From the NCBI RefSeq assembly GCF_044647545.1, contig NZ_CP172818.1: a DNA stretch of 64,000 nucleotides, one strand, 5' to 3'. The notes below the pieces were generated by a model. It was given only the letters and a program-made list of their open reading frames with translations, did not search any database and had not been told where the DNA came from. Below, in pieces: positions 46,203 to 49,982 of the stretch (the stretch's first letter is position 1; each line of letters starts with the position of its first letter). This DNA comes from Escherichia coli (GTDB lineage: Bacteria > Pseudomonadota > Gammaproteobacteria > Enterobacterales > Enterobacteriaceae). The translations under genes and the position numbers were made by a program.

Positions 46203-47071
46203 TGTCCATTTTAATTGATAAAAACACCAAGGTTATCTGCCAGGGCTTTACCGGTAGCCAGGGGACTTTCCACTCAGAACAGGCTATTGCATACGGCACT
46301 AAAATGGTTGGCGGCGTAACCCCAGGTAAAGGCGGCACCACCCACCTCGGCCTGCCGGTGTTCAACACCGTGCGTGAAGCTGTTGCTGCTACTGGCGCTA
46401 CCGCTTCTGTTATCTACGTACCAGCACCGTTCTGCAAAGACTCCATTCTGGAAGCTATTGATGCAGGCATCAAACTGATTATCACCATCACTGAAGGCAT
46501 CCCGACGCTGGATATGCTGACCGTGAAGGTGAAACTGGATGAAGCGGGCGTTCGCATGATCGGCCCGAACTGCCCAGGCGTTATCACTCCGGGTGAATGC
46601 AAAATCGGTATCCAGCCTGGTCACATTCACAAACCGGGTAAAGTGGGTATCGTTTCCCGTTCCGGTACACTGACCTATGAAGCGGTTAAACAGACCACGG
46701 ATTACGGTTTCGGTCAGTCGACCTGTGTTGGTATCGGCGGCGACCCGATCCCTGGCTCTAACTTTATCGACATCCTCGAAATGTTCGAAAAAGATCCGCA
46801 GACCGAAGCGATCGTGATGATCGGTGAGATCGGCGGTAGCGCTGAAGAAGAAGCGGCTGCGTACATCAAAGAGCACGTTACCAAGCCTGTTGTGGGTTAC
46901 ATCGCTGGTGTGACTGCGCCGAAAGGCAAACGTATGGGCCACGCGGGTGCGATCATTGCCGGTGGGAAAGGGACTGCGGATGAGAAATTCGCTGCTCTGG
47001 AAGCCGCAGGCGTGAAAACCGTTCGCAGCCTGGCTGATATCGGTGAAGCACTGAAAACTGTTCTGAAATAA
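46202..47071 (+). CDS. sucD: Succinyl-CoA synthetase alpha subunit
   Basis: 289-aa [27 protein letters not shown]... Confidence 0.95.
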
Positions 47072-47170
47072 ATATCTGTAATAAGAAATAGCCCTCGCCG
47101 CTTCCCTCTACAGGAATGGCGAAGGGCTGTCGGTTTCGACATGGTTGGCCATCATATGATGGCCTTTTTT
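47072..47170 (+). ncRNA. sdhX: sucD 3' UTR with terminator hairpin; candidate SdhX (RybD) 3'-UTR-derived sRNA
   Basis: Hairpin ggcc-atcatatgat-ggcc at 47147-47164 followed by tttttt; assigned by position after sucD; boundaries approximate. Confidence 0.45.
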
Positions 47171-47174
47171 ATGC

Positions 47175-47897
47175 TTATCGCGATGATTTTCGCTGCGCTA
47201 TCAGGGTAAATTTATAGTCATCGGTATTAAAAGCGTTGCGGCTATATTCAAACACCCGACCATCAACTAAATATCCACGCGATACTTTTTCAAGAATCGG
47301 CTTTGTCTGGCTGATATTAAGCAGACGGCTCATCTCTTCGGTTGGCATCAGAGGAATGATTTCCTGTTCGCTACGATCGATAACCATTTTCTTCACTTCT
47401 TCGATAAAGTGATATTTCGAATTTTCCATGACCTGCCAGGTGAGATCCGGGAACAACGCAAGCGGCATCCAGGTTTCTTCCAGCGCCATTGGCTTTTGCT
47501 TGCGATAGCGCACGCGCTTCACATGCCACACACGATCCTGCGGGGTGATTTGTAGCTGTTGCTGAAGAAAATCGTCAGCCGGAATCACTTCGAATATCAG
47601 AACTTCACTGTGTGTATCGACGTGACGGTCCGACAGTTTTTCATCAAAACTGGTTAACTGAAAAATATCGTAATTGACCCGCTCTTCTTTGACGTAAGTC
47701 CCGCTGCCCTGAATGCTTTCGAGGATCTGCTGCTCGACTAGCTGGCGCAAAGCCTGACGCACCGTAACCCGGCTGACGCCAAACTCTGTTTGTAGCGCTG
47801 ATTCAGTGGGTAACGCATCGCCAGGTTTAAGCTCGCCACGCGCAATTTGTTCACGAATGCGATCGGCAATCTGCCGGTATAAGGGCTTGTGTCCCAT
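47175..47897 (-). CDS. mngR: GntR-family transcriptional regulator of mannosyl-D-glycerate uptake
   Basis: 240-aa ORF with N-terminal GntR helix-turn-helix and UTRA-like C-terminal domain. Confidence 0.9.
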   Translation of the reverse strand: MGHKPLYRQIADRIREQIARGELKPGDALPTESALQTEFGVSRVTVRQALRQLVEQQILESIQGSGTYVKEERVNYDIFQLTSFDEKLSDRHVDTHSEVLIFEVIPADDFLQQQLQITPQDRVWHVKRVRYRKQKPMALEETWMPLALFPDLTWQVMENSKYHFIEEVKKMVIDRSEQEIIPLMPTEEMSRLLNISQTKPILEKVSRGYLVDGRVFEYSRNAFNTDDYKFTLIAQRKSSR

Positions 47898-48005
47898 TTT
47901 TAGTATCTCATTAATACGAATTTAACCATTATGCCCGATAAATTCATCCTGTAAATAATACAAATACAATACAAATAATTTCAATCAAGTGAAATTGATC
48001 ACATA

Positions 48006-49982
48006 ATGGTATTGTTTTATCGGGCACACTGGCGCGACTATAAAAACGATCAAGTGAGGATCATGATGAATCTGACGACTCTGACCCACCGCGATGCGTT
48101 GTGTCTGAATGCGCGCTTTACCAGCCGTGAAGAGGCCATCCACGCGTTGACTCAACGTCTTGCTGCTCTGGGGAAAATTTCCAGTACTGAGCAATTTCTG
48201 GAAGAAGTGTATCGCCGTGAAAGCCTTGGCCCGACCGCCTTAGGTGAAGGGTTGGCTGTGCCGCATGGCAAAACTGCTGCGGTAAAAGAAGCGGCGTTTG
48301 CGGTCGCCACACTCAGCGAGCCGCTTCAGTGGGAAGGCGTTGATGGCCCGGAAGCAGTTGATTTAGTGGTGCTGCTGGCGATTCCCCCCAATGAAGCGGG
48401 TACTACGCATATGCAACTGCTGACAGCGCTGACCACGCGCCTTGCGGATGATGAGATTCGGGCGCGTATACAGTCGGCGACGACGCCTGATGAGTTGCTC
48501 TCGGCGCTGGATGACAAGGGAGGCACGCAACCTTCTGCCTCTTTTTCCAACGCGCCAACTATCGTCTGCGTAACGGCCTGTCCGGCGGGTATTGCTCACA
48601 CCTATATGGCTGCGGAATATCTGGAAAAAGCCGGACGCAAACTCGGCGTAAATGTTTACGTTGAAAAACAAGGCGCTAACGGCATTGAAGGGCGTTTAAC
48701 GGCGGATCAACTCAATAGTGCAACCGCCTGTATTTTTGCGGCTGAAGTCGCCATCAAGGAGAGTGAGCGTTTTAATGGCATTCCCGCGCTTTCAGTGCCT
48801 GTTGCCGAGCCGATTCGCCATGCAGAAGCGTTGATCCAACAAGCGCTTACCCTCAAGCGTAGCGATGAGACGCGTACCGTACAGCAAGATACGCAACCGG
48901 TGAAAAGTGTCAAAACGGAGCTGAAACAGGCACTGTTGAGCGGAATCTCTTTTGCCGTACCGTTGATTGTCGCGGGGGGCACGGTGCTGGCGGTCGCGGT
49001 ATTACTGTCGCAAATCTTCGGGCTACAAGATCTGTTTAATGAAGAAAACTCCTGGCTGTGGATGTACCGCAAGCTGGGCGGCGGGCTGCTCGGAATTTTG
49101 ATGGTACCGGTGCTCGCGGCCTATACCGCCTATTCTCTGGCAGATAAACCGGCGTTAGCGCCAGGCTTTGCGGCTGGACTTGCCGCCAACATGATCGGCT
49201 CCGGGTTTCTCGGCGCGGTCGTTGGCGGATTGATAGCCGGTTACTTGATGCGCTGGGTGAAAAATCACTTGCGTCTTAGCAGTAAATTCAATGGATTCCT
49301 GACTTTTTATCTCTACCCGGTGCTCGGTACGTTGGGAGCGGGCAGTCTGATGCTGTTTGTGGTGGGGGAACCTGTCGCCTGGATCAATAACTCGCTTACC
49401 GCCTGGCTGAACGGTCTGTCAGGAAGTAACGCGCTGTTGCTGGGTGCCATTCTCGGTTTTATGTGTTCCTTTGACCTTGGAGGGCCAGTGAATAAAGCCG
49501 CTTATGCATTCTGCCTGGGCGCAATGGCGAACGGCGTTTACGGCCCGTATGCCATTTTCGCCTCCGTCAAAATGGTTTCGGCATTTACCGTAACCGCTTC
49601 CACGATGCTCGCACCGCGCCTGTTTAAAGAGTTTGAAATTGAGACCGGGAAATCCACCTGGCTGTTAGGGCTGGCAGGTATTACCGAAGGGGCGATCCCG
49701 ATGGCGATTGAAGATCCGCTGCGGGTTATTGGTTCGTTTGTGCTGGGCTCTATGGTAACGGGCGCTATTGTCGGTGCGATGAATATCGGCCTTTCGACAC
49801 CCGGTGCCGGCATTTTCTCGCTCTTTTTACTTCATGATAATGGCGCGGGCGGTGTTATGGCGGCAATTGGCTGGTTTGGCGCGGCATTGGTGGGGGCTGC
49901 AATCTCGACTGCAATTCTCCTGATGTGGCGGCGTCACGCGGTTAAGCATGGCAACTATCTGACTGATGGCGTAATGCCATAA
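48006..49982 (+). CDS. mngA: PTS 2-O-alpha-mannosyl-D-glycerate-specific EIIABC component; start uncertain (48006 or 48066)
   Basis: 658-aa open frame with fructose-type PTS domains; the in-frame ATG at 48066 has a strong GAGGA Shine-Dalgarno, the one at 48006 has none. Confidence 0.85.

Follow-up and report, generated by a model that had tools for sequence, protein, structure and literature searches.

In Escherichia coli, mngA almost certainly begins 20 codons downstream of the start given in NC_000913.3, and the 60 nt between the two positions (48006-48065) are non-coding. The start was placed downstream because these "extra" codons turned out to be conserved promoter and operator DNA. We hold it to be very probable that translation proceeds from 48066, with a possible contribution of the adjacent ATG at 48063, that 48006 is no start, and that the 60 nt belong to the mngR-mngA control region.

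In the window, by which we mean the whole 64-kb stretch of DNA analysed, the genes follow the E. coli K-12 order sucCD-sdhX-mngR-mngA-mngB. The longest open reading frame with mngA is opened by ATG 48006, spans 48006-49982 and encodes 658 aa; this is the start of b0731/NP_415259.1 in NC_000913.3 (position 765984). The product was identified by NCBIfam NF007293 (PRK09765, equivalog; 1286 bits, cut-off 763) as MngA, the PTS 2-O-alpha-mannosyl-D-glycerate EIIABC. The divergent mngR and the downstream mngB, coding for an alpha-mannosidase, are the context expected for MngA, and a divergent mngR was found next to mngA in every one of the 78 orthologous loci whose flanking DNA was long enough. The features discussed below are collected in Table 1.

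Table 1. Observed and predicted features of the mngR-mngA locus, in window coordinates
Feature	Position	Strand	Remarks
mngR (farR), GntR/HutC-type repressor	47175..47897	-	Pfam GntR + UTRA
Predicted mngR promoter, TSS near 47921	47928..47955	-	10/12 match
Left arm of inverted repeat, tgcccgataaa	47932..47942	.	-11 to -21 of predicted mngR promoter
FarR/MngR boxes 1 and 2, TGTATTATTT (exact) and TGTATTGTAT	47953..47973	-	overlap mngR -35
Predicted CRP-like site GTGAAATTGATCACA	47989..48003	.	centre 47995.5, i.e. -41.5 from predicted TSS (class II geometry)
Codons 1-20 of b0731/NP_415259.1, included in error	48006..48065	+	non-coding promoter/operator DNA
Predicted third FarR/MngR box, inverted; K-12 GGTATTGTTT, degenerate	48008..48017	+	comparative
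Right arm of inverted repeat, tttatcgggca	48016..48026	.	-21 to -11 of predicted mngA promoter
Predicted mngA extended -10, family TGnCAnAAT, K-12 GGGCACACT	48022..48030	+	predicted TSS near 48037
Shine-Dalgarno GAGGA	48056..48060	+	duplex -7.6 kcal/mol, 5-nt spacing to 48066
Adjacent in-frame ATG, codon 20 of long ORF	48063..48065	+	possible minor/alternative start (639 aa)
mngA CDS from conserved start, 638 aa	48066..49982	+	orthologs, PGAP, INRI-seq peak at ATGATG

Translation start of mngA

A sequence-only reading of this DNA had claimed that ATG 48006 lacks a Shine-Dalgarno (SD) sequence and that the in-frame ATG 48066 follows GAGGA at a distance of 5 nt. Both claims were borne out. Pairing to the 16S tail amounted to -1.6 kcal/mol upstream of 48006, with a window background of -2.5 ± 2.4 kcal/mol, and to -7.6 kcal/mol upstream of 48063/48066. 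In a set of 80 orthologous mngA loci, ranging from Citrobacter to Vibrio, the codon equivalent to 48066 was ATG in 78 cases and an SD-like tetramer was present in 77; the alignment of the orthologous spacers showed GTGAGGA to be conserved. None of the 80 loci had a counterpart of ATG 48006. An in-frame stop lay at most 19 codons upstream of the 48066-equivalent start in 49 of them, and an upstream ATG, GTG or TTG was wholly absent in 30.

Variation within the species pointed in the same direction. In a population sample of typed E. coli genomes (about 3775), 3110 complete genomes had ATG as the codon at 48006, 118 had ATA and 547 had AAT, the ATG having moved out of frame in the last group. 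ATG 48006 is missing from about 18% of the E. coli genomes with an intact mngA. Within E. coli it has disappeared on two independent occasions, and mngA is annotated as intact in the lineages without it.

In published cell-free initiation profiling by INRI-seq (PMC9825163), 48006 was silent and ATGATG (48063-48068) had a clear peak. The synthetic RNA used there carried both candidate starts of mngA, at a template level of 143 CPM (PMC9825163). The annotated start gave 0, 0, 0, 0 and 0 CPM in the five replicates, and the in-frame ATG at +57 gave 81 CPM, was seen in three replicates and was called TRUE (PMC9825163, Table S3), in an assay whose peak assignment of ±3 nt does not separate 48063 from 48066. 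In vivo, Ribo-RET yielded 0 at both candidate starts; mngA is repressed under standard conditions. The case of mngA resembles start re-assignments made by INRI-seq for genes such as uidR (Hoer et al. 2022, PMC9825163), where the annotated start is silent and initiation peaks solely at a downstream ATG that is in frame and has an SD sequence. It differs in the size of the shift, which is 19-20 codons instead of 4, and mngA is listed in Table S3 but absent from the text of that paper.

The earlier proposal of a shift by about 20 codons was right as to 48066, but it omitted the nearest downstream in-frame ATG at 48063, only 19 codons away and directly upstream of 48066. That this ATG (639 aa, MMNLT...) and not 48066 is the physiological start in E. 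coli appears unlikely to us, even though several observations speak for it: it is the ATG at +57 named in Table S3 of the INRI-seq study, the 639 positions of NF007293 align from residue 20 of the long ORF, one deposited record has 639 aa, and 24 of the 80 orthologs have ATG or GTG at this place. Its spacing to GAGGA is, however, 2 nt as compared to 5 nt for 48066, and in 54 of the 80 orthologs the codon is a non-start codon (GTT, CTT, TTT, others) with the distance from the SD sequence to the 48066 ATG unchanged. The tolerance of the INRI-seq assignment further weakens the argument from Table S3, and PGAP picks 48066.

A 658-aa MngA, initiated at 48006 alone or together with a downstream start, would have an N-terminal extension of 19-20 residues on its EIIA domain. 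ATG 48006 opens the longest ORF and is the start used in NC_000913.3, the 658-aa sequence is common in public protein sets, and the ATG is retained in the majority of the typed genomes mentioned above. These points are opposed by the lack of an SD sequence, by the silence of 48006 in all INRI-seq replicates, by the two independent losses with mngA still intact, and by the lack of a counterpart among the 80 orthologs, of which 49 are closed by a stop within 19 codons. Moreover, the extension lies outside the two domain models. On the long ORF, the full profile of NF007293 (positions 1-639) covers residues 20-658, and Pfam EIIA_2 is aligned from residue 30 of the long form, there at profile position 6. 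The N-terminus of a 638- or 639-aa protein is situated a few residues ahead of EIIA_2, without a leader, which the 658-aa form does not fit. The extension also coincides in part with the predicted -10 and with motifs conserved as non-coding DNA. We regard the 658-aa reading as scarcely credible and as already largely refuted. That mngA does not start at 48006, as first suspected from the sequence, is supported by the orthologs, the E. coli population, INRI-seq and PGAP/NCBIfam.

Control region between mngR and mngA

In an alignment of 30 Enterobacteriaceae sequences of the mngR-mngA spacer, positions 47988-48030 were conserved and showed no 3-nt periodicity, and positions 48031-48055 contained indels of 1-25 nt. 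The distance between the conserved block and the start varied by 1, 2, 3 or 17 nt between genera; across genera, indels within 48006-48065 were not multiples of 3. The idea that the 57-60 nt ahead of the start are promoter or operator rather than coding DNA is supported. From left to right, the region would comprise the mngR -10, the mngR -35 overlapped by two FarR/MngR boxes, a CRP-like site, a third, inverted MngR box and the extended -10 of mngA, followed by a short leader with GAGGA. We infer the promoters, the transcription start sites (TSS), the CRP site and the third MngR box from this comparison.

MngR reportedly acts as a repressor at the mngR-mngA spacer (Sampaio et al. 2004, as cited in other sources). 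The FarR/MngR motif consists of direct repeats of TGTATTAWTT, as quoted from Quail et al. 1994 in PMC4494728. It had a single exact match in the 64 kb, the box at 47953-47962, and a second box follows 11 bp away; read on the + strand, boxes 1 and 2 are two copies of AATACAAAT, 11 bp apart. Their conservation reaches Vibrio and Aeromonas, and TGTATT boxes were found across Gammaproteobacteria wherever mngR-mngA is conserved. The third box is a comparative prediction made here. Other genera have TGTATTATTT or TGTATTGTTT at the place of the degenerate K-12 sequence, and the box begins with the G of the false ATG 48006. This ATG may be a K-12-lineage variant of the box, in which the consensus AAATGTATT became AATGGTATT, a change that would have opened the reading frame at 48006 by chance.

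The predicted mngR promoter has the -35 TTTACA (reverse complement of 47950-47955), a spacer of 16 nt and the -10 CATAAT (reverse complement of 47928-47933), and each hexamer position is conserved in 24-30 of the 30 sequences. For mngA, the promoter scan returned no + strand promoter. At class II CRP-dependent promoters, CRP is centred at -41.5, the -35 is weak or absent and the -10 is often extended. The empty scan is explained by the lack of a -35 match in the presumed mngA promoter, as expected for this class. In the candidate extended -10, A48026 (hexamer position 2) and T48030 (position 6) were present in all 30 sequences, G48023 (-14) in 26 and T48022 (-15) in 19. The family therefore has the features of a sigma-70 extended -10 (A2, T6, TG at -15/-14); in K-12 itself, position -15 is G and not T, and the proposed -10, CACACT, is weak and without TG. 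The position of the extended -10 leads to a predicted mngA TSS near 48037. The supplements of Kim 2012 have no entry for a TSS of mngA, and the literature search gave only predicted hexamers. TATAAA at 48039-48044 would be a possible -10 in K-12, but it was rejected as none of its columns is invariant across genera. With either choice of -10 the TSS falls downstream of 48006.

The CRP-like site was the sole match of its kind in the window. Its core bases are conserved in 28-30 of the 30 sequences, and Photobacterium and Aliivibrio have a perfect TGTGA-N6-TCACA at the equivalent place. With this conserved GTGA-N6-TCACA 41.5 bp upstream of the predicted TSS, mngA would resemble class II CRP promoters; the distance rests on the predicted TSS, which was itself set from the invariant A2 and T6 of the -10 and the G at -14. 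In the literature searched, including the CRP SELEX paper, neither CRP control of mngA nor CRP binding at the spacer was reported. H-NS binding has been flagged at the spacer, and mngAB shows a response to SlyA, so factors besides MngR act there.

Annotation of the locus

PGAP placed the mngA start at 48066 in all eight E. coli genomes inspected (WP_001054864.1, 638 aa) and has no annotated feature at 47984-48028. PGAP and NF007293 agree with the start proposed from the sequence alone or differ from it by at most one codon, whereas the curated NC_000913.3 and the 658-aa entries based on it keep 48006. Since PGAP already annotates 48066, the shorter start is not new to the databases (PGAP, NCBIfam), and with the NCBI automatic annotation already there the correction amounts to an ordinary curation fix. 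None of the findings is conceptually new. Their practical value lies in curation, because in b0731/NP_415259.1 and derived entries the first 20 residues are almost certainly never synthesized. This bears on expression constructs and N-terminal tags, on knock-outs planned from the annotated start, and on work that analyses promoters or operators in the mngR-mngA spacer; a clean deletion from 48006, for instance, removes both the predicted -10 of mngA and the predicted third MngR box. The footprint further provides a testable regulatory map of a poorly studied PTS operon, in which two divergent promoters are accompanied by a predicted class II CRP site and by three or four MngR boxes.

The 11-bp inverted repeat

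The perfect 11-bp inverted repeat that had been noticed across the spacer is indeed present, its right arm falling within codons 4-7 of the long ORF. The arms are separated by 73 nt, and the repeat extends to 17 nt at 88%. In Markov-1 simulations, a perfect repeat of at least 11 nt in a 168-nt spacer had P = 0.011. Simulated 64-kb windows contained 2.0 ± 1.4 perfect 11-mer inverted repeats (spacer 3-100 nt), and the real window has three other long-spacer 11-mer repeats, all inside genes. With about two such repeats per 64 kb arising by chance, this one is unsurprising in a 64-kb scan and is more than chance only locally.

The suggestion that the repeat is the MngR operator did not survive. 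MngR binds direct repeats of TGTATTAWTT, and TTTATCGGGCA has no resemblance to this motif; the known operator and the repeat are unrelated in sequence. The repeat also lacks the conservation that the MngR boxes display wherever mngR-mngA is conserved. In K-12 its core matched at 11/11 positions; other E. coli lineages had 10/11 and 9/11, C. amalonaticus had 9/11, and a further 26 Enterobacteriaceae had 0-7/11. The changes, both within E. coli and in other Enterobacteriaceae, were not compensatory. Outside Escherichia, conservation of the repeat is limited to the bases next to the -10. In the left arm, the distal 7 nt are unconserved (K-12 match in 5-15 of 30 sequences) and conservation is confined to 47932-47934, part of the mngR -10. 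The repeat would arise because both back-to-back promoters carry TTTATCGGGCA at -21 to -11. Its proximal G(G)CA would be the extended -10/-10 element common to the two promoters, and the match in the distal TTTATCG is Escherichia-specific and most likely fortuitous.

As an alternative, the repeat might be a functional paired site through which MngR or another factor loops the spacer and co-represses both promoters. Its half-operators would be in phase, 84 bp apart from centre to centre or about 8 helical turns, and both arms occupy identical promoter positions. The local improbability, the retention of 9-10 of 11 positions in other E. coli lineages and C. amalonaticus, and the H-NS and SlyA effects mentioned above would fit as well. 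We nevertheless consider it quite improbable, given the unrelated MngR motif, the non-compensatory changes in E. coli, the number of such repeats expected by chance, the poor conservation of the distal left arm, and the poor match of the core in 26 Enterobacteriaceae in which all the other elements are conserved. A lineage-specific version, in which TTTATCGGGCA at both promoters is selected in Escherichia, and partly in C. amalonaticus, as a paired site 8 turns apart, appears about as improbable. Seven further bases (TTTATCG) matching in a register fixed by the -10 have a chance of about 1e-4, and C. amalonaticus keeps 5/7 of them. If true, the TTTATCGGGCA pair would couple transcription of mngR and mngA via some factor or via contacts of RNA polymerase with the spacer.

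An RNA hairpin formed by the repeat and its nested repeats in a spacer-spanning transcript was rejected as the least credible reading: 47922-48036 does fold into one long hairpin (z = -3.9 on the + strand and -4.7 on the - strand), but the predicted TSSs of mngR and mngA point outward, so that neither mRNA should contain both arms, the outer stem is unconserved and without covariation, and the fold is accounted for by the DNA-level symmetry of the MngR boxes and -10 elements.

Translation start of mngA

On reading 47000-48400, all coordinates of the sequence-only reading were borne out. It had moved the start of mngA, which encodes the PTS EIIABC for 2-O-alpha-mannosyl-D-glycerate, from the ATG opening the longest ORF (48006, 658 aa) to the in-frame ATG at 48066 (638 aa), found 5 nt after GAGGA. 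This choice stood, but a nearer in-frame ATG had been overlooked: the sequence at 48063-48068 is ATGATG, and the ATG at 48063 (639 aa) lies 19 codons 3' of 48006 and only 2 nt from GAGGA. Predicted pairing with the 16S 3' tail was -1.6 kcal/mol upstream of 48006 versus -7.6 kcal/mol upstream of 48063/48066 (window background -2.5 +/- 2.4).

INRI-seq (Hoer et al. 2022, PMC9825163) detects retapamulin-arrested initiation complexes formed in a cell-free system on pooled synthetic E. coli start regions, so that expression of the gene is not needed. Measured from the annotated start, the mngA template (143 CPM, Table S4) covers -30 to about +130 (Table S6) and therefore includes all candidate starts. 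The annotated start, 765984, scored 0, 0, 0, 0, 0 CPM and counted as FALSE (Table S2); the ribosome-profiling check on 48006, in which a signal would have spoken against the sequence-only reading, came out the opposite way. The in-frame ATG at +57 reached 81 CPM, peaked in three replicates and counted as TRUE; a GTG at +48 reached 8.7 CPM in a single replicate and counted as FALSE (both Table S3). The position column is off by one, as seen in the thrA row, and +57 corresponds to 48063. Because peaks are assigned to start codons lying 15 +/- 3 nt upstream of them, 48063 and 48066 cannot be told apart by this method. In vivo, where the operon is repressed, Ribo-RET gave no signal at these two candidates or at 48006.

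A scan of 100,044 species genomes yielded 80 orthologous loci, ranging from Citrobacter and Enterobacter to Serratia, Rahnella, Hafnia, Aeromonas, Vibrio and Photobacterium, with a divergent mngR in 78/78 loci with sufficient flanking DNA. The codon aligned to 48066 was ATG in 78/80, the other two starting 1-5 codons upstream, and an SD-like tetramer lay at -16 to -4 in 77/80. These counts make the position of 48066 the start of the family. Upstream of it, 49/80 orthologs had an in-frame stop within 19 codons, and in 30/80 the open frame held no ATG, GTG or TTG. The codon aligned to 48063 was ATG in 15, GTG in 9, TTG in 2 and a non-start in 54 of the 80; for E. coli this leaves 48063 no more than a secondary role in initiation.

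Within aligned divergent E. coli lineages, ATGATG at 48063-48068 was invariant. At 48006, K-12-like strains had ATG and AR_0067 had ATA; Iso00225 and A1.S1.126 had AAT, an allele in which the ATG is displaced by one base, out of frame. Counted in complete E. coli genomes with 45-mers centred on the variant, for which no cross-hit is possible in megablast, the three alleles occurred in 3110 (ATG), 118 (ATA) and 547 (AAT) genomes. About 18% of the genomes carrying the locus thus lack a start codon at 48006, and their mngA is annotated as intact.

Probable regulatory DNA between mngR and mngA

The spacer (47898-48065) was aligned with MAFFT and counted per column in K-12, two divergent E. coli and 27 other Enterobacteriaceae (n=30). 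It showed blocks conserved as DNA, not as codons. Depending on genus, block 3 lay 70.5, 71.5, 72.5, 73.5 or 87.5 nt from the start codon, which places a conserved block in differing reading frames and rules out 48006-48065 as coding sequence. The proposal that these 60 nt are promoter or operator DNA was upheld by the same alignment.

Features of the mngR-mngA region (window positions; counts out of 30 aligned spacers)
Feature	Position	Strand	Details
Gene order			sucC-sucD-sdhX, mngR (-), then mngA and mngB (+)
sdhX small RNA (b4764)	47072-47172		between sucD and mngR 3' end; known feature, NC_000913.3 annotation
mngR	47175-47897	-	
Mini-ORF	47900-47911	-	ATG AGA TAC TAA; three codons, ends 2 nt ahead of mngR ATG (47897)
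Block 1	47928-47933, 47950-47955	-	ATTATG and TGTAAA; on - strand CATAAT, TTTACA, 16-nt spacer
Block 2	47957-47976		AATACAAAT twice, 11 bp apart
Block 3	47989-48003		GTGAAAnTGATCACA; core 28-30/30
Block 4	48006-48018		A(A/T)nGTATTgTTT
Block 5	48022-48030		TGnCAnAAT; A48026 30/30, T48030 30/30, G48023 26/30, T48022 19/30
Block 6	48031-48055		poorly conserved, indels of 1-25 nt
Block 7	directly before start		GTGAGGA
MngR box, sole exact match in window	47953-47962	-	TGTATTAWTT
MngR boxes, looser	47964-47973, 47909-47918	-	
Third MngR box, looser	48008-48017	+	GGTATTGTTT
CRP-like site	47989-48003		GTGAAATTGATCACA; unique in window
GAGGA	48056-48060		
Inverted repeat, left arm	47932-47942		TGCCCGATAAA
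Inverted repeat, right arm	48016-48026		TTTATCGGGCA; 73 nt between arms
9-mer	47984-47992, 48049-48057		ATCAAGTGA; 65 nt apart

The blocks were assigned by conservation and geometry. Block 1 is the predicted mngR promoter, also found by a promoter scanner, with each position kept in 24-30/30 and a predicted TSS near 47921. MngR, formerly FarR, binds direct repeats TGTATTAWTT according to PMC4494728, which cites Quail et al. 1994. Matched to the motif as cited there, Vibrio, Photobacterium and Aeromonas keep the same layout, with two minus-strand boxes spaced by 11 bp and an inverted one some 40 bp downstream of them. The plus-strand box reads TGTATTATTT or TGTATTGTTT in other genera, exact or with one mismatch; in K-12 and most E. 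coli it is degenerate. A T-to-G change in this K-12 box provides the G of the 48006 ATG, so what NC_000913.3 takes for the start codon is a predicted operator box in a lineage-specific form.

Block 5 carries the signature of a predicted extended -10 of mngA (-11A and -7T invariant, G at -14), with a TSS near 48037. With such a TSS, the third MngR box would span -29 to -20 and the CRP-like site would be centred (47995.5) on -41.5, a class II position. At the place equivalent to block 3, Photobacterium and Aliivibrio have a perfect TGTGA-N6-TCACA; the literature searched gave no report of CRP control of mngAB, of CRP binding at the spacer or of a mapped TSS at this locus. The predicted mngA -10 is weak in K-12 (CACACT, with no TG, as T is missing at 48022), and TATAAA at 48039-48044 is a possible alternative there; with either choice the TSS lies downstream of 48006. 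To judge from the sequence, the degenerate third box and the missing T48022 would weaken mngA control or expression in E. coli compared with its relatives.

The MngR operator motif and the role of MngR as repressor of mngAB are already published. Details that may be new are the inverted third box, a CRP-like site in class II geometry and the false ATG as a box variant, all of them ordinary features of a sugar-PTS operon.

The copies of ATCAAGTGA belong to a longer direct repeat (18 nt, 78% identity). One of them overlaps the CRP-like half-site and the other the SD region; this duplication is probably coincidental. The ATG of the mini-ORF, at -14 to mngR and out of frame, gave 37 CPM in 4 replicates of INRI-seq, and the annotated mngR start was scarcely detected (0, 0, 0, 6.6, 6.1; PMC9825163). 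The mini-ORF was not conserved in other genera of the Enterobacteriaceae spacer alignment.

The 11-bp inverted repeat

The perfect 11-bp inverted repeat noted earlier is present and can be extended to 17 nt at 88%. In simulation, a perfect repeat of at least 11 nt was unusual for a 168-nt spacer (P = 0.011); simulated 64-kb sequences contained 2.0 +/- 1.4 such repeats when the spacer was limited to 100 nt, and three further long-spacer repeats occur in the actual window, inside genes. In the predicted promoters, the left arm covers positions -11 to -21 (mngR) and the right arm positions -21 to -11 (mngA), the dyad centre (47979) being the midpoint between the two predicted TSSs. Read on their own strands, the promoters are TTTATCGGG-CATAAT-GG (mngR) and TTTATCGGG-CACACT-GG (mngA). 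In the 30 Enterobacteriaceae, what remained of both arms was G(G)CA..AAT alone, which comprises the G at -14 and the hexamers at -10. The best reading of the repeat is a promoter element present twice, extended in Escherichia by a fortuitous 7 bp.

A lineage-specific function of the repeat is very unlikely. Core matches numbered 11 of 11 in K-12, 10 and 9 in two other E. coli lineages, 9 in C. amalonaticus and 0-7 in 26 other Enterobacteriaceae, and the distal bases of the left arm were identical to K-12 in only 5-15/30. The E. coli substitutions fall at adjacent, non-pairing positions and are therefore not compensatory. The suggestion that the repeat is an MngR operator did not hold, since its sequence is unrelated to the motif TGTATTAWTT as cited in PMC4494728. 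Folded as RNA, 47922-48036 forms a long hairpin (z = -3.9 and -4.7); this reading was rejected, as neither predicted mRNA has both arms and the stem lacks covariation, and the fold reflects the DNA-level symmetry of the boxes and -10 elements.

Annotation and distribution of the locus

The window is an E. coli K-12 region (window position = NC_000913.3 position minus 717978), and b0731 starts at window 48006 in NC_000913.3. PGAP places the mngA start at the base equivalent to 48066 (638 aa) in every PGAP-annotated E. coli genome opened, and lists no feature under 47984-48028. The NCBIfam equivalog NF007293 (639 positions) matches residues 20-658 of the long form end to end, and Pfam EIIA_2 starts at residue 30 of that form. 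Public protein sets hold 658-, 638- and 639-aa versions alike. The sequence-only reading thus rediscovered a real annotation conflict; PGAP and NCBIfam have the corrected start already, and a supplementary table in the literature implies it. The useful result is a curation note for b0731.

The mngR-mngA segment (47700-48400) was present in 3867/5426 complete E. coli genomes, and the locus is therefore variably present in the species. In E. coli TUM1857 (locus L009, 2005-3446) mngA is broken. The spacer carries an H-NS-associated flag in an RpoD genomic SELEX table, and SlyA overproduction raised mngAB 3.4-fold; together these suggest that nucleoid-protein silencing is added to MngR repression.
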